From: Escherichia phage vB_EcoM_H12
Direction: 5' to 3' (one strand)
Sequence record: PP952733.1
Length of the DNA: 64,000 nucleotides
This document shows, one piece after another, positions 3,485-50,960 of the stretch. Position 1 is the stretch's first letter; the number at the start of each line of letters is the position of its first letter. The notes below the pieces were generated by a model. That model was given only the letters and a program-made list of their open reading frames with translations. It was not told the DNA's origin and ran no database searches. The position numbers were made by a program, and so were the translations under genes.

Positions 3485-3699
3485 TTTCTAATCCCTCTCA
3501 ATCGTTTGTTCCACTCAAGGTCAACAAGTCTTTGTAGGACTTTCCCTCTAGGTGTTACACCTCTTAAGTCTGCATCGTAACAATGGTAAAAGTCACCTTC
3601 AGCGTATCTACCATAGCATTTTCTGATATTCTGACTCCTACGATACTGCTCTAACAGGGACAGTTTGTAGTAATCTTCAACTGTAGTTAGTTTTTTCAT
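3481..3699 (-). CDS. hypothetical protein (72 aa)
   Basis: ORF in track, start overlaps stop of upstream gene. Confidence 0.4.
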   Translation of the reverse strand: MKKLTTVEDYYKLSLLEQYRRSQNIRKCYGRYAEGDFYHCYDADLRGVTPRGKVLQRLVDLEWNKRLRGIRK

Positions 3700-8903: not shown

Positions 8904-8928
8904 GTTGACAAAGTACTTGACAAGGTGT
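8904..8928 (+). promoter_or_regulatory. Conserved 25-bp promoter-like element GTTGACAAAGTACTTGACAAGGTGT at divergent junction
   Basis: Two TTGACA boxes 12 bp apart after an A-tract; near-identical copy (one mismatch) at 50936-50960. Confidence 0.55.
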
Positions 8929-9054: not shown

Positions 9055-9426
9055 ATGAAAAACAGAACAAACAAAGGCCAGTTTAAAAAAGGCCAGTCTG
9101 GAAACCCATCTGGAAGACCAAAAGGCTCTCGTAACAAAAGCTCACTTGTAAAAGCTCAACTGACCATTGATAATTCTGCTGAGTTTGCTGCAAAGTTGTT
9201 TGAAGCGATTGTTACAAGGGACGCTGCTAAGCTTGCAGAGTTTGGTCTAAACACAGATGACGTAACCATCAAGAGCATGATTGAGGTCGGTAAAACTATC
9301 ATGACTCACTCAGCAGGTGAGATGAAAGCAATTGCAGCAGATACTAAGAAGACCCCTGATAATGGTGGTCAGTCACAGACAGATAACAAACCAACGTTCT
9401 CTGCTGTAGCTACTCTCAAAAAATAA
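9055..9426 (+). CDS. hypothetical protein (123 aa) with basic Gly/Pro-rich N-terminus
   Basis: AAGAGG RBS; N-terminal KGQFKKGQSGNPSGRPKGSRNK. Confidence 0.5.
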   Translation: MKNRTNKGQFKKGQSGNPSGRPKGSRNKSSLVKAQLTIDNSAEFAAKLFEAIVTRDAAKLAEFGLNTDDVTIKSMIEVGKTIMTHSAGEMKAIAADTKKTPDNGGQSQTDNKPTFSAVATLKK

Positions 9427-9507
9427 TTTTAAAAGGTGTTGACAGGCTCTACAAAGTTGCTCTAAAGTCTGTCACATCAAACAACAAATGAGAGAAGAGA
9501 GTAAAAT

Positions 9508-10923
9508 ATGAGCGAATTATTTAAACATGCGCACCTTCATGCAGGTCGAACTGAAAATGGTGCTGTAAACCATACTTCATCAATGTCTGCTCTGGTAGAC
9601 TTCTACAAAGCCGCTGGCTCAAGCCGTAGCAATGTAGAAATCTTACCAGACCTGTTCTACAAAGCTTTGCGTGAGGATGTTGATGTTGCAGTTCGTATTT
9701 TACTGCATATGCGAGATGTACGAGAAGGTATGGGTGAGCGTAAAGCTTTCCGAACTGTTTTACTTCAAGCGATTGAAGATAAAGTTTTAGAGCCTACACA
9801 GGTTCTTCGCATTATGGATAAGATTGCAGAACTTGGTCGTTTTGATGACTTCAAAATCTTCGTAGGTACTCGTTTTGAGACAGATGCCTTCAAACATTTA
9901 GAAGCAGCATTACTAGACCCTGCAACAGCAGGTTTAGCGGCTAAGTGGTTACCACGAGTAAAACCACGCCACAAACAGTTTGTAAAACGTTTCTGTAAGT
10001 TTGCAAACTTAAGTGAGAAGGAGTATCGCACGCTGTTATCTGCACTGTCTGATACGGTTGAGCAAAAAATCTCTGCTAATGAGTTTGGTAAGATTGACTA
10101 CAGCAAGATTCCTTCACTCGCTGCTGCACGTTACCAAAAGCTCTTTAACCGTAAAGATGGGGAACGTTACAAAGCTTACATCGAGTCCCTCTCAAAAGGT
10201 GAGGCTAAGATTAACGCTGGTGCTGTTTACCCATACGATGTGATTAAATCTATCAAGTATGGTAATGCAGATGTTGCTAATGAGCAGTGGAAAGCACTAC
10301 CAAACTGGATGGCAGAAGGTGAGAACATCTTGTGTATGACTGATGTTTCAAGCTCAATGTCTTGGGTGAATCTTGGTTCAATCACTGCCCTTGATATTGG
10401 TGTATCACTTGCTTTGTATGTAGCAGAACGCAACACTGGTTGCTTTAAGAATGAGTTAATGGTTTACTCAACAAACCCTCACTTCATCGAACTGAGTGGT
10501 GATTTACGAAACCGTCATCGTCAGGTAATGCGTCATGTTGAATACGGTTCAACTAACTTACAAGCAGCTTTTGACCGTATTCTTGAGGTAGGTAAGCGAA
10601 ACAACTTGACTCAGAAAGATATGCCAAGTAAGCTTATTATCTTCTCCGATATGGAGTTCAATCAGGTTGATGGAGCTAACGGTCGTACAAACTTTGAAGC
10701 AATTCAGAGTAAGTACAAAAAAGCTGGATACGAAATGCCACAACTAGTATTCTGGTACTTAGCAAACCGTAATGGTACTTGCGAAGTATCTGTTAAGGAT
10801 AATGGTGTAGCAATGGTATCAGGGTTCTCTCCAGCCACTTTAAAAGCTCTGCTTGGTGGTGAGAAGTTTGACCCAATCAGCATAATGCTCAAAGCGGTAA
10901 TGATTGACCGTTACATCTGGTAA
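9508..10923 (+). CDS. vWA-domain protein with MIDAS motif and long helical N-terminal domain; candidate Ro60-like (TROVE-vWA) protein
   Basis: DxSxS MIDAS motif (CMTDVSSSMSW) about residue 277 preceded by hydrophobic strand; about 270-aa N-terminal domain; TROVE-like assignment is inference from domain layout only. Confidence 0.6.
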   Translation: MSELFKHAHLHAGRTENGAVNHTSSMSALVDFYKAAGSSRSNVEILPDLFYKALREDVDVAVRILLHMRDVREGMGERKAFRTVLLQAIEDKVLEPTQVLRIMDKIAELGRFDDFKIFVGTRFETDAFKHLEAALLDPATAGLAAKWLPRVKPRHKQFVKRFCKFANLSEKEYRTLLSALSDTVEQKISANEFGKIDYSKIPSLAAARYQKLFNRKDGERYKAYIESLSKGEAKINAGAVYPYDVIKSIKYGNADVANEQWKALPNWMAEGENILCMTDVSSSMSWVNLGSITALDIGVSLALYVAERNTGCFKNELMVYSTNPHFIELSGDLRNRHRQVMRHVEYGSTNLQAAFDRILEVGKRNNLTQKDMPSKLIIFSDMEFNQVDGANGRTNFEAIQSKYKKAGYEMPQLVFWYLANRNGTCEVSVKDNGVAMVSGFSPATLKALLGGEKFDPISIMLKAVMIDRYIW

Positions 10924-10934
10924 AAAGTTTTAAA

Positions 10935-10970
10935 AAGGGTATTGACAATGTGTTTAATACCCTTTAATAT
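10935..10970 (+). promoter_or_regulatory. Sigma70-like promoter (TTGACA-17-TAATAT) embedded in a 9-bp inverted repeat
   Basis: TTGACA at 10942-10947, TAATAT at 10965-10970; AAGGGTATT / AATACCCTT arms flank the -35 box. Confidence 0.55.
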
Positions 10971-11033
10971 GTTCTACATAGAAACGAAATGAGAGCTTTT
11001 CTAAGATACTGAAAAATATTTTAAAAAAGTTCT

Positions 11034-11062
11034 TGACAACCACTAAAAAATAATGTTAAAGT
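11034..11062 (+). promoter_or_regulatory. Promoter-like element upstream of tRNA array
   Basis: A-tract then TTGACA at 11034-11039; weak -10 (TTAAAG). Confidence 0.4.
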
Positions 11063-11088: not shown

Positions 11089-11165
11089 CTCTGTTTAGCT
11101 CAGCTTGGTAGAGCGTTCCGTTTGGGGCGGTAAGGCCGGAGGTTCAAGTCCTCCAACAGAGACCA
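11089..11165 (+). tRNA. tRNA-Pro (anticodon UGG)
   Basis: Cloverleaf folded by hand: 7-bp acceptor CTCTGTT/AACAGAG, anticodon loop TTTGGGG, T-arm GGAGG-TTCAAGT-CCTCC, CCA encoded. Confidence 0.85.
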
Positions 11166-11172
11166 AATTAAT

Positions 11173-11250
11173 GTTCCAGTAGACAAAATGGTAAAGTCAC
11201 CACTCTTTCAAAGTGGATATTTGAGGGTTCAAATCCCTTCTGGAACGCCA
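11173..11250 (+). tRNA. tRNA-Glu (anticodon UUC)
   Basis: Acceptor GTTCCAG/CTGGAAC, anticodon loop CTTTCAA, T-loop TTCAAAT, CCA encoded. Confidence 0.8.
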
Positions 11251-11257
11251 GTTTTGA

Positions 11258-11330
11258 CAGAAGACCAATTGCAGCAAACTTAATCTTATTCATCTGACAC
11301 GAAATCGGACAAAGAAGAGATTTGGTCTGG
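11258..11330 (+). ncRNA. Stem-closed RNA-like element A (CAGAAGACCAAT...TTTGGTCTGG)
   Basis: Terminal inverted repeat AGACCAA/TTGGTCT enclosing about 50 nt; conserved CAGCAA next to 5' arm; one of four related elements. Confidence 0.4.
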
Positions 11331-11341
11331 TCATTAAGAAT

Positions 11342-11418
11342 TGCGGGTATAGAGAAAGGGCGTCTCACATGTCTCATTAGCATGGTATCGGCAGGTTCGA
11401 CTCCTGCACCCGCCTCCA
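11342..11418 (+). tRNA. tRNA with anticodon CAU (Met or Ile2 type)
   Basis: Anticodon loop CTCATTA, T-arm GCAGG-TTCGACT-CCTGC, CCA encoded; first acceptor pair mismatched. Confidence 0.75.
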
Positions 11419-11424
11419 AATTTA

Positions 11425-11488
11425 CAGAAGACCGTTTACAGCAATATTTATTAAATTTTTAGCGGAAAAATTGAAAGATACGGTCTGG
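11425..11488 (+). ncRNA. Stem-closed RNA-like element B (CAGAAGACCGTT...ACGGTCTGG)
   Basis: Terminal inverted repeat AGACCGT/ACGGTCT; compensatory changes relative to elements A and C. Confidence 0.4.
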
Positions 11489-11501
11489 TAATACTAAACA
11501 T

Positions 11502-11578
11502 GGTTAGGAAGCACATAAGGTATGTGCGGTCGCCTGTTAAGCGAATGGCACAGGGTTCGAATCCCTGACTAACCGCCA
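11502..11578 (+). tRNA. tRNA-Asn (anticodon GUU)
   Basis: Anticodon loop CTGTTAA, T-arm CAGGG-TTCGAAT-CCCTG, CCA encoded. Confidence 0.8.
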
Positions 11579-11587
11579 AATTTAAAT

Positions 11588-11675
11588 GTGTCGTTATCCC
11601 GTAGATGGTAGCGGTGGGGACTGTAAATCCCTTGTCATTGAGACTCGGTAGGTTCGACTCCTACACGGCACACCA
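11588..11675 (+). tRNA. tRNA-Tyr (anticodon GUA), long variable arm
   Basis: Anticodon loop CTGTAAA, about 14-nt variable arm, T-loop TTCGACT, CCA encoded. Confidence 0.8.
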
Positions 11676-11681
11676 AATAAA

Positions 11682-11759
11682 GGTTATGTAGTTTAATCTG
11701 GTTAAAATACTCCCCTGTCACGGGAGATGATGAGGGTTCAAATCCCTTCGTAACCGCCA
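11682..11759 (+). tRNA. tRNA-Asp (anticodon GUC)
   Basis: Anticodon stem CTCCC/GGGAG with loop CTGTCAC, T-loop TTCAAAT, CCA encoded. Confidence 0.8.
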
Positions 11760-11845
11760 AATTATAATAAGTATTTCAAAATGATGTTTGAGAGGGCTAT
11801 TCAGCCCCTCCCTTAAAGAGTTTTTACGAGTATTCTTTAAAGGAG

Positions 11846-11918
11846 CAGAAGACCAAATTCAGCAAGTTACTTAAAATTTCAAGCCAATTTAATTTTGAAA
11901 AATTTAAAACTTGGTCTG
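11846..11918 (+). ncRNA. Stem-closed RNA-like element C (CAGAAGACCAAA...TTGGTCTG)
   Basis: Terminal inverted repeat AGACCAA/TTGGTCT; conserved CAGCAA after 5' arm. Confidence 0.4.
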
Positions 11919-11932
11919 ACTCAACAAATTTA

Positions 11933-12064
11933 CAGAAGACCGTTTACAGCAAAACTTAAACAATCTATTTCTCCGGTAAAGAAAAGGCGAAGGTTCGATT
12001 CCTTCACTCGGCAGATGTCGAGTTGGTGTAATGGTAGCACTTAAGATGATAAACAACGGTCTGG
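11933..12064 (+). ncRNA. Stem-closed element D with permuted tRNA-like module (Y RNA-like candidate)
   Basis: Closing stem AGACCGTT/AACGGTCT; inside, in order: T-arm GAAGG-TTCGATT-CCTTC (11989-12005), 7-bp hairpin ACTCGGC-AGAT-GTCGAGT (12006-12023), D-arm-like TGGTGTAATGGTAGCAC; no anticodon arm or CCA. Confidence 0.45.
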
Positions 12065-12065
12065 T

Positions 12066-12209
12066 AATTATCTTTGTAGATAAGTTATTAAGCTTACTTG
12101 TGAGTATGCGACCACAAAGGGTGAAAGGGTAAATTCTAGATTTAAACCCAACAACGCACATCGCTACAGACCTTAAGCAAGTCTGGGTAGCTTATCTACA
12201 AAGATAATT
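12066..12209 (+). repeat. 19-bp perfect inverted repeat (AATTATCTTTGTAGATAAG / CTTATCTACAAAGATAATT) enclosing about 105 nt
   Basis: Arms at 12066-12084 and 12191-12209 are exact reverse complements; inner hairpin CAGAC-CTTAAGCAA-GTCTG. Confidence 0.6.
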
Positions 12210-12223
12210 TAATGGAAGTGTAG

Positions 12224-12289
12224 CAGAATGGTGATGCGGCAGACTTTTAATCTGACAGGCGATGGGTTCGAATCCCTCCACTTCTACCA
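12224..12289 (+). tRNA. tRNA-Lys (anticodon UUU)
   Basis: Acceptor GGAAGTG/CACTTCT, anticodon loop CTTTTAA, T-loop TTCGAAT (T-stem has two mismatches), CCA encoded. Confidence 0.7.
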
Positions 12290-12293
12290 ATAT

Positions 12294-12370
12294 GGTTCAG
12301 TCGCAGATAAGGTAATGCAGGGGTCTCATAAGCCCTATGAATGTGGGTTCGATTCCCATCTGAACCTCCA
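12294..12370 (+). tRNA. tRNA-Met (anticodon CAU), second copy
   Basis: Anticodon stem with three consecutive G-C pairs, loop CTCATAA, T-arm GTGGG-TTCGATT-CCCAT, CCA encoded. Confidence 0.75.
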
Positions 12371-12371
12371 A

Positions 12372-12447
12372 GCTGGTATAGTTAAGAAGGTTATAACACT
12401 CCCCTGATAAGGGAACATCGGTGGTTCGATTCCACCTACCAGTACCA
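12372..12447 (+). tRNA. tRNA-Ile (anticodon GAU)
   Basis: Anticodon loop CTGATAA, T-arm GGTGG-TTCGATT-CCACC, CCA encoded. Confidence 0.8.
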
Positions 12448-12462
12448 ATTTCAATAAAGTTG

Positions 12463-12491
12463 TTGACATTGAGATGTGACCACTTTATAGT
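12463..12491 (+). promoter_or_regulatory. Sigma70-like promoter TTGACA-17-TATAGT inside tRNA array
   Basis: TTGACA at 12463-12468, TATAGT at 12486-12491, upstream A-tract. Confidence 0.55.
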
Positions 12492-12783
12492 AACTAAAAT
12501 ACTTCATAATATGTATAATTCAAACACCAATACATGAGCGTTAGACGTAACACAATGTGGGGAAATTTGTTGTACATATTCTGAATAGTTTTCGTTGCGT
12601 AGCGTCTATTTTGCAAATTTAAAATAAATGCAAACGACAATGTTTTTCTGGCAGTAGCTTGATAGGCTAAACACCAGTGAGGTCTTCCAATCCCTCATCA
12701 AAGAATTTGGCGTACTAGCCCACGGTATGATTAATAAGGTGGGCATCTTTAAGTACTTTCTAAGAGAGTCTTTAAAGATTAAT

Positions 12784-12860
12784 GCACCCTTAGTTCAATT
12801 GGATAGAGCAACGGTCTTCTAAATCGTTAGTTACAGGTTCGAATCCTGTAGGGTGTGCCA
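12784..12860 (+). tRNA. tRNA-Arg (anticodon UCU)
   Basis: Acceptor GCACCCT/AGGGTGT, anticodon stem ACGGT/ATCGT with loop CTTCTAA, T-loop TTCGAAT, CCA encoded. Confidence 0.8.
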
Positions 12861-13001
12861 AATAGTTAGCAGATTGCTTAGACGACCTTATCGGGTCTCC
12901 GTGTAAGGAGGTGGTCTGTATCTCATGTTTCCAGAACATGTAAATAATCTGAGAAGGGGCTTTACAGTGTTGCGAAAATACGGTAAGCTTCGAATTATAG
13001 T

Positions 13002-13084
13002 GTGGGACGATGTTAAGACTCTAAGGCATGAGCAACGGCCTCCAAAACCGTTTCAAAGGGGTTCAACTCCTCCGTCCCATGCCA
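13002..13084 (+). tRNA. tRNA-Trp-like (anticodon CCA), atypical expanded D region
   Basis: Acceptor GTGGGAC/GTCCCAT, anticodon loop CTCCAAA, T-arm AGGGG-TTCAACT-CCTCC, CCA encoded; about 26 nt between acceptor and anticodon stem. Confidence 0.45.
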
Positions 13085-13097
13085 AAGTCTTATTAGG

Positions 13098-13185
13098 GGT
13101 AGGTAGCGGCTAATGGCAGCCAAACAGTCTTGAAAACTGTTGCCACTGTAGAGATACGGTGAGGGTTCGACTCCTTTACTTACCG
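13098..13185 (+). tRNA. tRNA-Ser (anticodon UGA), long variable arm
   Basis: Anticodon stem ACAGT/ACTGT with loop CTTGAAA, long variable arm, T-loop TTCGACT; CCA not encoded. Confidence 0.75.
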
Positions 13186-13340
13186 CCTAATAAGATTTAA
13201 AACCAAGCTTCATTCGGATGTTGCTTTGGTATCCCTCGTGTATTGTCGTACACAAGTAAAGCACCTAGTAGGTGTCACGGAGAAGAGATAATATCAAGCT
13301 CTCCAAAGGTTCTAGTCACCGGATTAAACAAGACTATGCA

Positions 13341-13361
13341 AAGACCTATTTAGGTCTTTTT
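13341..13361 (+). terminator. Terminator-like hairpin inside tRNA array
   Basis: AAGACCT-ATTT-AGGTCTT followed by TTT; AT-rich stem so probably weak. Confidence 0.4.
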
Positions 13362-13440
13362 AGAGGGCTTCTAAGGTTATTACAGCTTGTTGTGGAACCT
13401 TGTTGCTTAGGTTCTTAGAAGTTCTCTAAAAAGATTTAAT

Positions 13441-13518
13441 GGGAGATTGACGGTAATTGGTAAACCTACCATCCTTAGAAGTTGGTGTTTGAGGGTTCGA
13501 ATCCCTTGTCTCCTACCA
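13441..13518 (+). tRNA. tRNA with anticodon UAG (leucine-type anticodon) but short variable arm
   Basis: Acceptor GGGAGAT/GTCTCCT, anticodon loop CTTAGAA, 5-nt variable loop, T-arm GAGGG-TTCGAAT-CCCTT, A73, CCA encoded. Confidence 0.7.
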
Positions 13519-13525
13519 AATTAAT

Positions 13526-13601
13526 GCAGGTGTAGCAAAATGGTTATGCGGCTGACTCTTAATCAGTAAGACGATGGGTTCAATTCCCTCCACCTGTACC
13601 A
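13526..13601 (+). tRNA. tRNA-Lys (anticodon CUU)
   Basis: Close paralog of the UUU tRNA at 12224; anticodon loop CTCTTAA; CCA encoded. Confidence 0.75.
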
Positions 13602-13605
13602 AATT

Positions 13606-13681
13606 GGGGTCATAGTTTATATGGTTAAAATTCGAGTTTTGCAAACTTGGGAACTGAGTTCAATTCTCAGTGACTCCACCA
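13606..13681 (+). tRNA. tRNA-Ala (anticodon UGC)
   Basis: Acceptor GGGGTCA/TGACTCC, anticodon loop TTTGCAA, T-arm CTGAG-TTCAATT-CTCAG, CCA encoded. Confidence 0.8.
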
Positions 13682-13687
13682 ATTAGT

Positions 13688-13762
13688 GCATCCATAGTTT
13701 AAACGGGAAAATTACAGTCTTCCAAACTGAGGTTGAGGGTTCGATTCCCTCTGGATGCTCCA
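13688..13762 (+). tRNA. tRNA-Gly (anticodon UCC)
   Basis: Acceptor GCATCCA/TGGATGC, anticodon loop CTTCCAA, T-arm GAGGG-TTCGATT-CCCTC, CCA encoded. Confidence 0.8.
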
Positions 13763-13769
13763 AATTAAT

Positions 13770-13845
13770 GCTCCTATCGTATAATTGGCTATTACGGTTG
13801 CCTTGTAAGCAACTTATCAGGGTTCGAATCCTTGTGGGAGCACCA
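13770..13845 (+). tRNA. tRNA-Thr (anticodon UGU)
   Basis: Acceptor GCTCCTA/TGGGAGC, anticodon stem GTTGC/GCAAC with loop CTTGTAA, T-loop TTCGAAT, CCA encoded. Confidence 0.8.
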
Positions 13846-13850
13846 ATTCA

Positions 13851-13936
13851 GAGGTCAAGTGAAAGACCGCTTTGAGTCAACTGAAGACCGTAACAAATCC
13901 CACGGAGTTGAGTTAGCGGCACAACTTCAGACCTCT
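13851..13936 (+). ncRNA. Structured hairpin element between tRNA-Thr and tRNA-Val
   Basis: 6-bp closing inverted repeat GAGGTC/GACCTC around about 75 nt with nested complementary segments (TCAACT/AGTTGA) and a GAAGACCGT motif; no canonical T-loop. Confidence 0.35.
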
Positions 13937-13941
13937 TTCAT

Positions 13942-14016
13942 ACTCGCTTAGTTTATATGGTAAAACATCACCCTTACAAGATGAAGAAAAAGGTTCAAGC
14001 CCTTTAGTGAGTACCA
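13942..14016 (+). tRNA. tRNA-Val (anticodon UAC)
   Basis: Acceptor ACTCGCT/AGTGAGT, anticodon loop CTTACAA, T-arm AAAGG-TTCAAGC-CCTTT, CCA encoded. Confidence 0.7.
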
Positions 14017-14017
14017 T

Positions 14018-14095
14018 GTTCCAGTATCCCAATTGGCAGAGGATGCAAGCTCAAACCTTGTACTAGTGACGGTTCGAATCCGTCTTGGAACACCA
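14018..14095 (+). tRNA. tRNA with anticodon CAA (leucine-type anticodon) but short variable arm
   Basis: Acceptor GTTCCAG/TTGGAAC, anticodon stem GCAAG/CTTGT with loop CTCAAAC, 6-nt variable loop, T-arm GACGG-TTCGAAT-CCGTC, A73, CCA encoded. Confidence 0.7.
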
Positions 14096-14100
14096 ATTTT

Positions 14101-14176
14101 GCAGGATTAGTTCAAATGGATAGAGCAACAGTCTACGAAGCTGTTAATAGGGGTTCGAATCCCTTATCCTGCGCCA
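14101..14176 (+). tRNA. tRNA-Arg (anticodon ACG)
   Basis: Acceptor GCAGGAT/ATCCTGC, anticodon stem ACAGT/GCTGT with loop CTACGAA, T-loop TTCGAAT, CCA encoded. Confidence 0.8.
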
Positions 14177-14195
14177 ATTTAAAGAGGCTATTTAG

Positions 14196-14753
14196 ATGAG
14201 ATATTTGAAGTATGCTTCATGGATTTTCTTAGCTTTGTTAGAGCCATTTGCAGCAATCTTAGCAGTTATCTTAGCACCTTTTGTAGTTCCATTCTACAGT
14301 GAAAAGAAAGGACACTTACCTTTCGGCTTCAGATGGATGGAAACATATGACAACCCAATTGATGGTGATGAAGGTCATGTTGAACGATGGGCTAAGATTA
14401 GAAAGATTGGTAAGCTTGGTGTCTATATGCAGAGAGTTGGTTGGCTCTGGAGAAACAAAGCTTATAACTTCTCTTACCATGTGTTAGGAAGAGATGTAAA
14501 AGATGTTACTAAGTGGAAAGGTAATATCAATGTAAGTTCTAACCCTGAAGATAATCAGACAGGTTATCTCCTAATGTGGAACAGTAATGCTTGGGGATTA
14601 TTCGCTTTTATCCCATCAATTAAAGTCTTTGGTAAGCAATTCTACTGGAGAATTTATGTTGGATGGAAACTTAAAAGTGTTGTTCCAAAAGAAAGAGCAT
14701 TCTCAAGGGAAAGAGTTATGTTGGCATTCTTTATTCATCCACTAAGAAAGTAA
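14196..14753 (+). CDS. putative membrane protein (185 aa) encoded inside the tRNA array
   Basis: AAAGAGG RBS; N-terminal hydrophobic helix (WIFLALLEPFAAILAVILAPFVVPF); Trp-rich. Confidence 0.55.
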   Translation: MRYLKYASWIFLALLEPFAAILAVILAPFVVPFYSEKKGHLPFGFRWMETYDNPIDGDEGHVERWAKIRKIGKLGVYMQRVGWLWRNKAYNFSYHVLGRDVKDVTKWKGNINVSSNPEDNQTGYLLMWNSNAWGLFAFIPSIKVFGKQFYWRIYVGWKLKSVVPKERAFSRERVMLAFFIHPLRK

Positions 14754-14761
14754 AGATTTAA

Positions 14762-14837
14762 AGGGGATTAGTTTACAAGGTTAAAACCTCGGTCTTTGAA
14801 ATCGAAGAAGTTGGTTCAATTCCAACATCCCCCGCCA
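14762..14837 (+). tRNA. tRNA-Gln (anticodon UUG)
   Basis: Anticodon stem TCGGT/ATCGA with loop CTTTGAA, T-arm GTTGG-TTCAATT-CCAAC, CCA encoded; first acceptor pair mismatched. Confidence 0.75.
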
Positions 14838-14839
14838 AT

Positions 14840-14918
14840 GCTCCATTACTCCAATTGGTAGAGAGGCCAGACTTAAAATCTGTGTTATGTATCGGTTCGA
14901 ATCCGATATGGAGTACCA
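14840..14918 (+). tRNA. tRNA with anticodon UAA (leucine-type anticodon) but short variable arm
   Basis: Acceptor GCTCCAT/ATGGAGT, anticodon loop CTTAAAA, about 7-nt variable loop, T-arm ATCGG-TTCGAAT-CCGAT, A73, CCA encoded. Confidence 0.7.
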
Positions 14919-14923
14919 AATTT

Positions 14924-14999
14924 AGCGGTATAGCATAACTGGCAATGCAGCAGTCTCTGAAGCTGTCTTATTAAGGTTCAAATCCTTATGCCGCTGCCA
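14924..14999 (+). tRNA. tRNA-Gln (anticodon CUG)
   Basis: D-stem GCAT/ATGC, anticodon stem GCAGT/GCTGT with loop CTCTGAA, T-loop TTCAAAT, CCA encoded. Confidence 0.7.
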
Positions 15000-15030
15000 C
15001 TTCTAAGGATTCTTACGAGAGTCCTTAAAT

Positions 15031-15106
15031 GTGGCCTTATCATAAATGGTAATGACCCATGCTGTGAACATGGTCTATACGGGTTCAAATCCCGTAGGTC
15101 ACCCCA
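15031..15106 (+). tRNA. tRNA-His (anticodon GUG)
   Basis: Acceptor GTGGCCT/AGGTCAC, anticodon stem CCATG/CATGG with loop CTGTGAA, T-arm ACGGG-TTCAAAT-CCCGT, CCA encoded. Confidence 0.8.
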
Positions 15107-15111
15107 ATTTA

Positions 15112-15188
15112 TAGTCCAAGTAGCTTATATGGTTAAAGCGCGTGTCTGAAAAACATGAGAAGAGGGTTCAAATCCCACTGGACTACCA
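15112..15188 (+). tRNA. tRNA-Phe (anticodon GAA)
   Basis: Acceptor TAGTCCA/TGGACTA, anticodon loop CTGAAAA, T-loop TTCAAAT. Confidence 0.75.
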
Positions 15189-15204
15189 ATTTCAAAGGTG
15201 CTTA

Positions 15205-15939
15205 ATGAAAGAGATGACAGAACAAGGTAAGGAGATTTTTAATCTCTTAAAAACTGGTAAAGGGTTATCTAACCCCCTTATTACTGGTGCAGCAGTTCTC
15301 GGTGGAACAGTAGCTGCCTCTACATCACTTGTAAGCTCTATTAGCTCTGTAACAGACCCTACAATAAAGGATAAGCTTATTGCTGCTGGACTTACAACAG
15401 TTCTGCTTAACAGCTTTACCACAAGTCTGACAAGCACTACATCAACTACTAAAACACTGACAGATTACGGTCAAAAGTCCATTGATGAGTTTTCATCACG
15501 TATGCAGGTAGCAAAAGGTTATTCTAATGTTATGGGTGCAGCAGGTGAACAAGTTGGCTGTACACCATTTAGTGGTATTATGGGTGTTGCTACAGAGTAC
15601 GGTCAAAAAGCTATTGACACAATTAACAGCACACTAGACGGTGTTAATGATGTATTAAGTGACTTACAAGACGCTATTGACAAAGGTCTTGATACTATTT
15701 CTGATTTAGCTAACCAAGCTGTTAGTAAGATTAATGAAGGTATCTCGAAGATTACAGCTTATGCAGATGAAGTTGTGCAGATGATTGAAGAAGAAGCTGC
15801 CCTTATTGCAGAGTACCTTAAAACAAATATCAATGGGTTCTTAGCAGGTATCTTACCAGACTGGTTTGATGATGCTTGTAAAACTGGTGTAATTGATACT
15901 ATTGCAACACCAGAGATGAAGAACGCATTACAGAAATAA
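15205..15939 (+). CDS. hypothetical Ser/Thr-rich protein (244 aa) inside the tRNA array
   Basis: Start moved from track 15142 to ATG 15205 (AAAGG RBS) so it does not overlap tRNA-Phe; low-complexity S/T segment. Confidence 0.5.
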   Translation: MKEMTEQGKEIFNLLKTGKGLSNPLITGAAVLGGTVAASTSLVSSISSVTDPTIKDKLIAAGLTTVLLNSFTTSLTSTTSTTKTLTDYGQKSIDEFSSRMQVAKGYSNVMGAAGEQVGCTPFSGIMGVATEYGQKAIDTINSTLDGVNDVLSDLQDAIDKGLDTISDLANQAVSKINEGISKITAYADEVVQMIEEEAALIAEYLKTNINGFLAGILPDWFDDACKTGVIDTIATPEMKNALQK

Positions 15940-15941
15940 AT

Positions 15942-16034
15942 GGAAGATTAACCCTAAAAGGTAAGGGAGCAGTTTGCTAAACTGCCAGTAGCTGAGAAAT
16001 CGGTGTACCAGTTCAAGTCTGGTATCTTCCTCCA
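15942..16034 (+). tRNA. tRNA-Ser (anticodon GCU), long variable arm
   Basis: Acceptor GGAAGAT/ATCTTCC, anticodon stem GCAGT/ACTGC with loop TTGCTAA, long variable arm, T-arm ACCAG-TTCAAGT-CTGGT, CCA encoded. Confidence 0.8.
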
Positions 16035-16038
16035 ATTT

Positions 16039-16114
16039 GAATCCGTGACAGAAATGGATATGTACCTGTCTGCAAAACAGGTTTATAAGGGTTCGAGTCC
16101 CTTCGGATTCTCCA
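16039..16114 (+). tRNA. tRNA-Cys (anticodon GCA)
   Basis: Acceptor GAATCCG/CGGATTC, anticodon stem CCTGT/ACAGG with loop CTGCAAA, T-loop TTCGAGT, CCA encoded. Confidence 0.8.
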
Positions 16115-23380: not shown

Positions 23381-23830
23381 ATGTGCTATACAGGCGACCC
23401 AGCCAATAACCCTCTTGATAGAGTAAGAATCCTCTGCACAGACACCAATAATGATGAAATTCTTATTGAACAGTCTGTGCTAGAGTGGTTCTATCTAGAA
23501 TCTGGAAAGGATGAAAAGAAAGCAGCCATCAAAGCTCTTAAATATTTACTCTTTCAAGTAGCCAAGATGGGAGATGAGAAGGTTGGTGGTGTTTATTTAC
23601 GTAACTCTTCCAGATTCAAATCTCTGAAAGCTGTTTATGACGACCTTGTTAAAAGCTCTGTTTCAGGACTACCCTATGCAGGTGGTATTAATCAGTGCGA
23701 CATTGATATGCGTCGTCAAAATCCTTGCTCTGTCAAGAAATACACAGAATATGGTGATGCTGCCAGATACGAAGGCAGAGATTACTGCAACCGTGTTAAT
23801 GGCGTATTTATTATCGAGCGAGATGAATAA
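23381..23830 (+). CDS. putative head-tail connector protein (149 aa)
   Basis: Position after capsid gene; GGAGGG RBS. Confidence 0.4.
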   Translation: MCYTGDPANNPLDRVRILCTDTNNDEILIEQSVLEWFYLESGKDEKKAAIKALKYLLFQVAKMGDEKVGGVYLRNSSRFKSLKAVYDDLVKSSVSGLPYAGGINQCDIDMRRQNPCSVKKYTEYGDAARYEGRDYCNRVNGVFIIERDE

Positions 23831-27813: not shown

Positions 27814-33197
<5,384 letters not shown>

Positions 33198-42874: not shown

Positions 42875-43174
42875 TTAATCTGCCAGCCTTAAATTAAAAT
42901 TAACACCAAATTTTTCGCATACTTCCAACATAAACTCAAGAGAGACATTACCAGTGAGATTGATTATGTTGGATACGCGAGCCTGAGAGATACCACAAAT
43001 TTTAGCAACTTGCTCTTGAGAAAGACCTCTGGATTTAATCTCTCTCTTAAAACGATGTGCAACGAAGTCTCTCATTTCGTCTACATCCATTGGACAAATA
43101 TAATTCTCCATTTCAGCCTCTCTGTCAGCCTCCCAATCATCTTGTGGAGCATAAGGGTCAAAAACCTCATTCAT
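42875..43174 (-). CDS. HTH (XRE-like) transcriptional regulator
   Basis: Helix-turn-helix LSQEQVAKICGISQARVSNIINL; start moved to internal ATG (track start is TTG at 43204). Confidence 0.55.
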   Translation of the reverse strand: MNEVFDPYAPQDDWEADREAEMENYICPMDVDEMRDFVAHRFKREIKSRGLSQEQVAKICGISQARVSNIINLTGNVSLEFMLEVCEKFGVNFNLRLAD

Positions 43175-43379
43175 CTTTCTTCTTCCGTTTTCGTGAAGTG
43201 TCAATCAATGAATCTATGTTTGTAGACCTAACCTTTTCACGTTCATCGTTAAGATAATCGTCAAGAATCTTTTCAATCTGTGAATCATCTTGACAGATAA
43301 CTGTAAAGACTGTAAAGCCGTCTGTATCATCAATTATCTTACCATAACCGCTTCTGGGATGTAACTTTTTAAGAGCCAT
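43167..43379 (-). CDS. hypothetical small protein (70 aa), basic C-terminus
   Basis: ORF in track. Confidence 0.35.
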   Translation of the reverse strand: MALKKLHPRSGYGKIIDDTDGFTVFTVICQDDSQIEKILDDYLNDEREKVRSTNIDSLIDTSRKRKKKDE

Positions 43380-43764: not shown

Positions 43765-43860
43765 AATGACCTCAAAGTTATATTAAATTTTGTATTACAT
43801 TGAGTATAAAAATAAGCTATAACACCTGACTTGTCAACAGATTTTATAGCTTATTTGGCA

Positions 43861-43997
43861 GATTTTTTATAAGGCTACTGCCATCCTTCCATACCTTACC
43901 ACACCAAACCACACCATACCGAGCCACACCCTACCAGACCCTACCAAACCCGACCGAGCATCACTTAAAAATCCTCTTAGAAGACTCTTAAGTGATG
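43861..43997. repeat. ACC-rich intergenic repeat copy 1 with 10-bp inverted repeat
   Basis: GGCTACTGCCATCC then ACC/CCA-rich tract, then CATCACTTAA ... TTAAGTGATG; homologous to 45261-45388. Confidence 0.65.
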
Positions 43998-44009: not shown

Positions 44010-44108
44010 AATGTAGCTCCGATTAACTACCCGCACTTTACCAAACCTCACCCTACCCTACCAGACCTTACCTAACCGCGCCGTACCTCATTAAAAGACC
44101 CTCTTAAA
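44010..44108. repeat. ACC-rich intergenic repeat copy 2 (degenerate)
   Basis: CTACCC..ACCAAACCTCACCCTACCCTACCAGACCTTACC tract similar to copies 1 and 3. Confidence 0.5.
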
Positions 44109-45260: not shown

Positions 45261-45388
45261 AGATTTTTAACGTGGCTACTACCATCCACCCAGACTTTAC
45301 CATACCTCACCAGACCATACCTCACCTGGCCGCGCCTTGCCTTGCCAAACATCACTTAAAAACCCTTTTAAAAGACTCTTAAGTGATG
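45261..45388. repeat. ACC-rich intergenic repeat copy 3 with 10-bp inverted repeat
   Basis: GGCTACTACCATCC then ACC-rich tract, then CATCACTTAA ... TTAAGTGATG; homologous to copy 1. Confidence 0.65.
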
Positions 45389-50935: not shown

Positions 50936-50960
50936 GTTGACAATGTACTTGACAAGGTGT
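50936..50960 (+). promoter_or_regulatory. Conserved 25-bp promoter-like element GTTGACAATGTACTTGACAAGGTGT at second divergent junction
   Basis: One mismatch relative to the element at 8904-8928; two TTGACA boxes. Confidence 0.55.

Follow-up and report, generated by a model that had tools for sequence, protein, structure and literature searches.

Gene order and sequence features at the locus

The window analysed here, that is the whole stretch of 64,000 nucleotides (nt) from Escherichia phage vB_EcoM_H12 (PP952733.1), contains at positions 10934–10970 an inverted repeat that overlaps a predicted promoter, P1, directly behind a gene annotated as 'vWA'. The 3-kb stretch around this element has 97–99% identity to many Felix O1-like myoviruses (Felixounavirus) and matches 299 phage records, the best match being Escherichia phage ECOH1 at 99.1%. 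Judged by this identity, the window is part of a Felixounavirus genome. Genes on the − strand extend up to approximately 8830 and are followed by a divergent intergenic region, after which the + strand carries a DUF5681 gene (9055–9426) and the 'vWA' gene (9508–10923), with the stop codon TAA at 10921–10923. The 'vWA' gene corresponds to open reading frame (ORF) 42 of Felix O1 and encodes a protein of 471 amino acids with the Pfam domains DUF2828 and DUF7788, a putative RNA-binding protein resembling Ro60 (TROVE plus vWA) and referred to here as Ro60-like. Next on the + strand is an array of 26 tRNA genes (11089–16114) with four interspersed RNA elements of the form GACC..CAGCAA (11252–12072), and the terminase and structural genes come after the array. 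Rfam searches around the hairpin and promoter site, at both gathering and permissive thresholds, returned tRNAs as the sole matches.

The inverted repeat has a left (5') arm AAAGGGTATT at 10934–10943 and a right (3') arm AATACCCTTT at 10956–10965 on the + strand, the latter filling the −10-proximal half of the promoter spacer, with a 12 nt loop between them (10944–10955). The hairpin (10934–10965) and promoter together occupy 37 bp at the gene boundary (10934–10970). A sequence-only reading of this DNA had described a 9 bp inverted repeat (AAGGGTATT/AATACCCTT) that contains the −35 box and begins 12 bp after the vWA stop. The repeat is indeed present directly past the stop, as a perfect repeat of 10 bp starting 11 nt after it; of the −35 hexamer, only the TT is within the left arm, the remaining GACA being within the loop. 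The stem has 12 pairs if G·U pairs are counted. RNA of the + strand folds at −14.1 kcal/mol (z = −2.84) and the fold is retained when 236 nt of context are folded.

The window has three perfect repeats that are 10 bp or longer and have loops of 3–20 nt, where 1.2 ± 1.1 are expected (30 Markov-1 simulations), and a 60 nt fold as strong as that of the hairpin is at about the 9th percentile of genome windows. Taken alone, the repeat and its promoter match are not beyond chance. The window's only other perfect 10 bp short-loop repeats are the two copies of a 39 nt palindromic element (CATCACTTAAAAA(T/C)CCT...AAGTGATG) in − strand intergenic regions at 43959–43997 and 45350–45388.

P1 (10942–10970, + strand) has the −35 sequence TTGACA (10942–10947), a 17 nt spacer, and the −10 sequence TAATAT (10965–10970), with a predicted start at approximately 10976–10978. 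Its hexamers are near TTGACA and TATAAT and its spacing is within the 17 ± 1 bp of σ70 promoters. It had been described as the best consensus promoter in the window, which is not the case: P1 is one of 34 sites that match at 10 out of 12 positions, and six sites match at 11 out of 12. The hexamer match is therefore weak evidence alone. Promoter-like matches as a class are not enriched in the window, with 32 found and 36.2 ± 6.4 expected from shuffles. Directly upstream of the −35 is an A/T-rich tract AAAGTTTTAAAAAGGGTA (10924–10941), in the region from about −60 to −38 that is typical of UP elements, and the part AAAAAGTTTTAAAAAGGG resembles the UP element consensus of E. coli. Downstream of the −10 is a conserved start region GTTCTACATAGAAACGAAA (10971–10989), which recurs in part at P2 (GGTTACATAGAG) and as CTACATCGACACGAAA in Yersinia phage P778. 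P1 looks like a σ70-type promoter with an UP-like element, and it is predicted to fire.

The second promoter of the tandem pair, P2 (11033–11062, + strand; TTGACA-18-TAAAGT with TG before the −10), is located 91 bp beyond P1, and 27 nt separate it from tRNA-Pro downstream. The pair, at the same 91 bp distance, is found in all close relatives, and in Kolesnikvirus, too, a homologous promoter is placed before tRNA-Pro. An extended pattern, TTTTAAAAA-N4-5-TTGACA ... TACATAG, is common to P1 and P2 and is partly present at a promoter-like site before the Ro60-like gene (9439–9468, + strand; TTGACA-18-TAAAGT, preceded by TTTTAAAAGG). The 9439 promoter is annotated in the AYO145A record and listed for UAB_Phi87. 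The arrangement TTTTAAAAA-N4-5-TTGACA is found at 9439 and 11033 and also at intergenic sites at 8905, at 50937, and at two further places in phage E9, these latter sites sharing that part of the pattern only. Tandem σ70 promoters, also named P1 and P2, are well known from the rrn operons of E. coli, where they are approximately 90–120 bp apart, have A/T-rich upstream tracts, and precede stable RNA genes. The phage pair is alike in its σ70-type sequences, its spacing, its UP-like tracts, and its position before stable RNA genes. It differs in that the genes are a phage tRNA array and the promoters are predicted ones, with no evidence of Fis sites or growth-rate control.

Other repeats and motifs are found at or near promoter-like sites. 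The 9439 promoter has a 9 bp repeat of its own, TGACAGGCT (TGACAG(G/A)CT) at 9440–9448 and AGTCTGTCA at 9466–9474, which joins the −35 to the −10/+1 region. Its arms are kept in close relatives while its spacer diverges, it has no U-tract after it, and it is absent in deeper relatives, several of which are without this promoter. Each of the two divergent intergenic regions has one + strand copy of the motif TTGACAA(A/T)GTACTTGACAAGGTG, which contains two −35-like hexamers and has an A-run before it; the copies are at 8905–8928, before the DUF5681 gene, and at 50937–50960, beside the DNA polymerase gene. Phage E9 has a third, less exact copy at 85244. Between the predicted P1 start and the P2 −35 there is a 17-pair A/U-rich hairpin (10991–11035, + strand), the 3' arm of which is the UP-like tract of P2. 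Its two G·U pairs are valid on the + strand only, and relatives keep the hairpin only in part, with some pairs broken and one compensatory change. In Kolesnikvirus and in a relative of 55% identity (L072), a P1-like promoter is followed by a tRNA-like element inside a GAGAGCTT(C/T)AG.GG / C.CT.AAGGTAGC stem (L033 2330–2440, L034 2330–2440, and L072 4080–4215), of which the window retains only the GAGAGCTT leader at 10991–10998.

A − strand promoter-like site at 43810–43856 (TTGACA at 43837) has its −35 between inverted repeat arms of 13–19 nt (AAATAAGCTATAA / TTATAGCTTATTT), followed by a T-run. It is upstream of an operon that includes an Xre-type helix-turn-helix (HTH) regulator gene (42875–43204), and the corresponding 60 nt in the relative E9 fold at −17.8 kcal/mol. 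Short G/T-rich repeat runs (GGTTTGGTAGGGTCTGGTAGGGTGTGG...) are present at 43881–43958 and 44030–44060 on the − strand, between the 39 nt palindromic element and this site. A general rule that promoters of this phage sit in hairpins was considered and rejected. Folds of −13.7 kcal/mol or stronger are found at three of 12 promoter-like sites, as against approximately 1.2 expected, which is not significant; in addition, the 7 bp repeat of P2 is not retained in relatives and the junction between the DUF5681 and vWA genes has no conserved hairpin in the relatives compared. There are promoters for which a hairpin is itself the recognition element, as for the virion RNA polymerase of phage N4 and the single-stranded Frpo promoter of F, and these resemble P1 in the association of a promoter with an inverted repeat. 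Their geometry does not fit this locus, where the −35 and −10 are duplex σ70 hexamers 17 bp apart and are not paired with each other.

Conservation of the hairpin in close and deeper relatives

The 101 nt region containing the element occurs in 252 phage records, in 251 of them at nearly full length, and 33 genomes of Felixounavirus, Mooglevirus, and Suspvirus have 11 distinct versions of it. Positions 10924–10989 form an island of near-identity, flanked on one side by the 3' end of the gene, where synonymous sites vary, and on the other by a much more diverged segment at 10990–11030. The loop is the sole variable patch inside this island: six of its eight positions outside the −35 vary and GACA is invariant, so that the P1 −35 is unchanged where its neighbours in the loop vary. 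The left arm AAAGGGTATT is also invariant in the 33 genomes. All arm changes are in the right arm, these being A10956G, which is common, A10959G, in one contig, and T10964G, in Silverhawkium. The first two generate U·G pairs in + strand RNA and the third breaks one A-U pair near the base of the stem. Overall, 99.1% of stem cells across the close relatives are paired.

Deeper relatives were sampled through a protein search, which yielded homologues of 47–63% identity on contigs of 75–92 kb with the same DUF5681–vWA synteny. Across 13 lineages TTGAC(A/G) is invariant, and a −10-like hexamer is present 17–18 nt downstream in each, although in some it is degenerate (GACTAT, GATACT). The distance from stop codon to −35 is 18 nt in eight of the lineages. 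For each lineage the best stem between the 14 nt upstream of the −35 and the spacer was compared with shuffled versions of these two flanks. Of the 13 lineages, 11 have a stem around the −35, each with p = 0.002–0.07.

The sequences of these stems are not the same. The lineage with 63% protein identity (L071) has identical geometry, with the pair 10941–10958 changed from A-U to G-C and two other pairs changed to U·G and G·U. Other lineages enclose TTGAC(A/G) in the stems AAAGTGG/CCACTTT, AAAGGGG/CCCCTTT, GGGGG/CCCCC, and TAGGGG/CCCCTA, with the arms in every case just upstream of this sequence and 6–8 nt downstream of it. Across lineages the arms are of the types GGGTAT, GGGTG, GTGG, GGGG, and TAGGGG. 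At least four double-sided stem changes separate the lineages, and the wobble changes are valid on the + strand. There are two exceptions. L078 has an 11 bp hairpin just after the −35. In Yersinia phage P778 a repeat pairs the −35 with the −10, and there is a separate G+C hairpin with a T-run further on. The order in P778 is un-telescoped, with GC hairpin and T-run, UP-like tract, TTGACG-18-TAAAGT, and then the same start region. A covariance model made from the close relatives (R1) found deeper homologues weakly and mixed with false hits, therefore its alignment was not used for pair counts; what it matched in L153 was the conserved start region and not a hairpin.

The hairpin is accepted as real because it is conserved in close relatives and because a stem of changed sequence is at the same place in deeper ones. 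A chance origin was rejected once the deeper relatives had shown this altered stem. The related possibility, that the repeat is without function of its own and is a by-product of the sequence needs of the promoter and of low divergence, is highly improbable. It would account for a 10 bp repeat that is near the chance expectation for a 64-kb window, for a fold at about the 9th percentile, for a left arm that is largely UP element and −35, and for changes among close relatives that are never double-sided. It does not account for the recurrence of a −35-enclosing stem with different sequences in 11 of 13 lineages, or for an island of identity at P1 between diverged flanks. The spacer of the 9439 promoter provides an internal control, as it diverges freely in the same genomes.

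Since the pairing is kept and the arm sequence is not, the comparison argues for a structural RNA hairpin, selected as a structure, and against a sequence-specific operator. Protein binding to the palindrome, which had been proposed from the sequence alone, is not borne out. If the palindrome acted in the DNA, either as the operator of a dimeric regulator or as a cruciform, it could mask the −35 and so silence P1 during part of the infection. This would suit several features: the arms flank the −35, the half-site centres are 22 bp apart (two helical turns), the phage encodes the Xre-type HTH regulator at 42875–43204, and the − strand promoter-like site at 43837 is likewise inside a long inverted repeat. 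This explanation is very unlikely, however, as the half-site sequence is not conserved between lineages and the two half-sites of L071 differ at 3 out of 10 positions. The palindrome occurs once in the window, where apart from its arms the half-site is found exactly at one place, a lone copy at 28112, and no second operator-like site is among the promoter-like sites of the complete relative E9. No link between the HTH regulator and the hairpin site emerged from the half-site search with mismatches or from the promoter-like sites of E9. In addition, P2 would still serve the array. A 12 nt loop disfavours cruciform extrusion. A promoter of the MerR type was also rejected, since the spacer is 17 bp and not 19–20 bp and the palindrome straddles the −35 instead of being centred in the spacer.

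The hairpin goes with the Ro60-like gene, and not with the type of promoter, in the phages compared. In Kolesnikvirus the Ro60-like gene is missing and the homologous promoter has no hairpin, and the DUF5681–vWA junction likewise has no conserved one.

Strand and function of the hairpin

The element is not new to the literature. In Felix O1 it was predicted as the rho-independent terminators t42 (23547–23575, + strand, −10.2 kcal/mol) and t43 (complement 23542–23572, −9.2 kcal/mol) (Whichard et al. 2010, Viruses 2:710, Table 2). The published t42/t43 sequences (gggtattgacaatgtgtttaatacccttt and its reverse complement) match window positions 10937–10965 exactly and are just after ORF42, therefore the element and the upstream gene are the same in the two phages. 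That prediction was made in silico with TransTerm/Mfold, without comparative evidence, and no overlapping promoter was noted. The promoters listed by Whichard et al. (2010) are P11, P41, P45, P102, and P117, and the UAB_Phi87 paper lists the promoter before the Ro60-like gene. P1 is not in either of these lists (for UAB_Phi87, the supplementary table), nor in the Felix O1 or AYO145A records, which have no regulatory feature at this place. The hairpin has thus been predicted before, and the overlapping P1 promoter is absent from the sources checked. How transcription passes the predicted terminators was stated to be unknown (Whichard et al. 2010).

The evidence on strand favours RNA read through from upstream. 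In 10 of 11 lineages the hairpin is more stable on the + strand than on the − strand, by 2–9 kcal/mol (in the eleventh the script chose another helix), and all of the wobble substitutions pair only in + strand RNA. On this comparison the sense (+) strand appears to be the one that matters. The earlier suggestion of an RNA hairpin in read-through transcripts from upstream is therefore sustained, both by the compensatory changes that keep the stem and by the strand preference of the wobble pairs and of stability.

A hairpin acting mainly on the − strand or in both directions, as a terminator that stops antisense transcription from the tRNA array before it enters the Ro60-like gene, seems unlikely, although it is a real rival. 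The − strand does have 5–6 U directly after the hairpin in 9 of 11 lineages, two lineages have a terminator score above zero and have it on that strand only, the − strand RNA of the hairpin region folds at −13.9 kcal/mol (z = −3.28), and t43 of Whichard et al. (2010) is on the complement strand. The T-run read on the − strand is, however, the A-run of the UP-like tract. This U-run needs no terminator role because the A-run is general upstream of the phage's promoters, hairpin or not. On the − strand the wobble pairs become A·C mismatches, and the hairpin is the weaker one in 10 of the 11 lineages. No convincing − strand promoter or gene faces the hairpin. Two small − strand ORFs in the array (11904–12161 and 12606–12746) are annotated as genes in several relatives (e.g. 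AYO145A orf047 and orf048); their positions coincide in part with a + strand RNA element or with intergenic stretches of the array, and they are perhaps spurious.

The explanation favoured, at little better than even confidence, is that the element is a leaky terminator or 3'-end hairpin of the Ro60-like mRNA, telescoped onto P1, the first of two tandem σ70 promoters for the tRNA array. A stable stem-loop is found shortly after the stop codon and its stem has compensatory changes in relatives, both as expected of a terminator. In 11 out of 30 more distant phages (39–47% identity) a fold of −20 kcal/mol or lower is within 72 nt after the stop codon of the DUF2828 gene. These hairpins are mostly G+C-rich and usually have a T-run after them, and in L098 TTGACA is directly after. 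Because distant homologues carry terminator-like hairpins there, the Felixounavirus hairpin is by position the terminator of the Ro60-like gene, probably one pushed onto the next promoter. It resembles intrinsic terminators, including bidirectional ones, in having a stem-loop right after the stop with an A-run before and T-rich sequence after, and in that the distant homologues of the gene have canonical versions at the same place. It differs from them in having 3 G-C pairs, a loop of 12 nt (8 nt counting G·U), a + strand tract of three U that is lost in some lineages, and a score that is sub-threshold on both strands in most lineages.

Under this favoured explanation the same bases would be read twice. 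As DNA, 10924–10970 would be P1, a promoter of the host σ70 type with UP-like tract, perfect −35, 17 bp spacer, and TAATAT, and P1 and P2 would start transcription of the tRNA and small-RNA array independently of the upstream gene. In RNA that reads through from the 9439 promoter across the Ro60-like gene, 10934–10965 would fold in vivo 11 nt past the stop, with the −35 hexamer in the loop and the first part of the −10 serving as a short tail rich in U. The Ro60-like mRNA would then have its 3' end at the hairpin, which would be an intrinsic terminator, although a weak and leaky one, and/or would block 3' exonucleases after the tRNAs downstream have been excised. The net effect would be that the two units are insulated and not coupled. 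We conclude from the sequence comparisons that the conserved role is probably that of a structured 3' end for this mRNA, by way of leaky termination and/or exonuclease protection.

Several observations weigh against this explanation. The + strand U-tract is poor (UUUAAUAU, with three U) and is missing in the GGGGG and TAGGGG lineages, and all lineages have a negative d'Aubenton-Carafa-type score on the + strand. The hairpin is thus unlikely to be an efficient intrinsic terminator, and its conserved role may be something other than termination. It is the − strand hairpin that is followed by a canonical run of 5–6 U in 9 of 11 lineages. The covariation amounts to approximately seven stem types in lineages that are not independent and with registers that differ by up to 6 nt, and no double-sided covariation is found among the 33 close relatives. 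Conservation of the P1 spacer is not unique, as the P2 spacer is also well conserved. No map of transcript 5' or 3' ends for any Felixounavirus was found in the literature searched, and the expression data that do exist for Felix O1, by reverse transcription PCR (RT-PCR), are not strand-specific and include tRNA-region ORFs that may not be real genes.

A further possibility is that the 3' untranslated region of the Ro60-like mRNA has in the hairpin a regulatory RNA site, for autoregulation by the Ro60-like protein or for processing, and not a terminator. The hairpin is tied to the presence of the gene and persists in lineages without a U-tract, and the protein is predicted to be an RNA binder of the Ro60 type. 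It has nothing in common, however, with the ACAGCAA elements that are found with the gene in various phages, its stem is too short for RNase III, and nothing ties the Ro60-like protein to the hairpin RNA. Such a site is considered quite unlikely.

Coupling of the vWA gene to the downstream array had also been proposed. A hairpin directly after the stop codon and overlapped by an independent promoter separates the two units instead, and by RT-PCR they differ in expression class. In Felix O1, ORFs 41 and 42 (the DUF5681 and Ro60-like genes) peak at 25 min (middle class), as against 5 min (early) for ORFs 45, 46, 48, and 49 of the tRNA region. This timing fits independent early promoters behind ORF42. 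Coupling could persist in one form, at low probability, through hand-over of polymerase after termination. Retention of polymerase after termination, followed by secondary initiation, has been described on model templates, mostly with antisense restarts (Harden et al. 2020, Nat Commun 11:448), and a terminator on top of a promoter has the geometry in which a released polymerase could restart nearby. The overlap itself would then be functional, with polymerase that releases the Ro60-like mRNA at the hairpin remaining on the −10/+1 region of P1 and re-initiating there without leaving the DNA. There is only a slim chance that this is so. If true, it would mean that transcription of the Ro60-like gene directly feeds the downstream tRNAs and Y-RNA-like partners, and it would explain why the hairpin is kept around the −35, with 18 nt from stop to −35 in 8 of 13 lineages, through deep divergence and even where the U-tract has been lost.

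The Ro60-like protein and the tRNA array

A sequence search of the PDB gave no match for the vWA protein. Its AlphaFold2 model (predicted local distance difference test, pLDDT, 86.6; predicted template modelling score, pTM, 0.87) matches full-length Ro60, Rsr, and the Ro60 of Thermus phage phiLo in Foldseek, with TMq up to 0.65 and E of approximately 1e-7. The model indicates that this DUF2828 plus DUF7788 protein is Ro60-like and a predicted RNA binder. More than 2,800 homologues were found, mostly on phage-sized contigs.

The four RNA elements within the tRNA array are on the + strand at 11252–11340, 11419–11500, 11838–11915, and 11926–12072. Each consists of the core AGAAGACC-NN-TT-N-CAGCAA and of a long bulged stem (...GACCxxx / xxxGGTCTGGTA) that closes it, and the fourth encloses tRNA-like arms. 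A motif of the form stem-(T)ACAGCAA-...-stem adjoins the DUF2828 genes of phages with 29–45% identity. It is found at 3520–3620 in L028, at 2680–2900 in L029, at approximately 2330–2420 in L160, and just after the gene in L081, L082, L086, L087, L095, L099, and L100. No Rfam family matches the ACAGCAA elements, and they are candidates for Y-RNA-like RNAs that partner the Ro60-like protein. Bacterial Y RNAs have been surveyed in the literature in genomes with TROVE-annotated proteins only. No account of the ACAGCAA elements, nor of DUF2828 in phages, was found in the papers searched.

By its sequence and conservation, the element at 10934–10970 is real and conserved and is of an ordinary kind, a compact gene-boundary signal, though one that is unusually well conserved. 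On its own it carries little weight. It refines the transcription map of the Felix O1-type phages, the temporal control of which is still undescribed, by placing tandem predicted promoters for the tRNA array directly behind a terminator-like hairpin. It is also a neat case in which signals that would be read in DNA and in RNA share the same bases under selection, the −35 having long been kept in the loop of a co-varying hairpin. The context outweighs the element itself. The gene upstream is Ro60-like, and the array holds candidate Y-RNA-like partners that recur beside this gene family in many unrelated phages.

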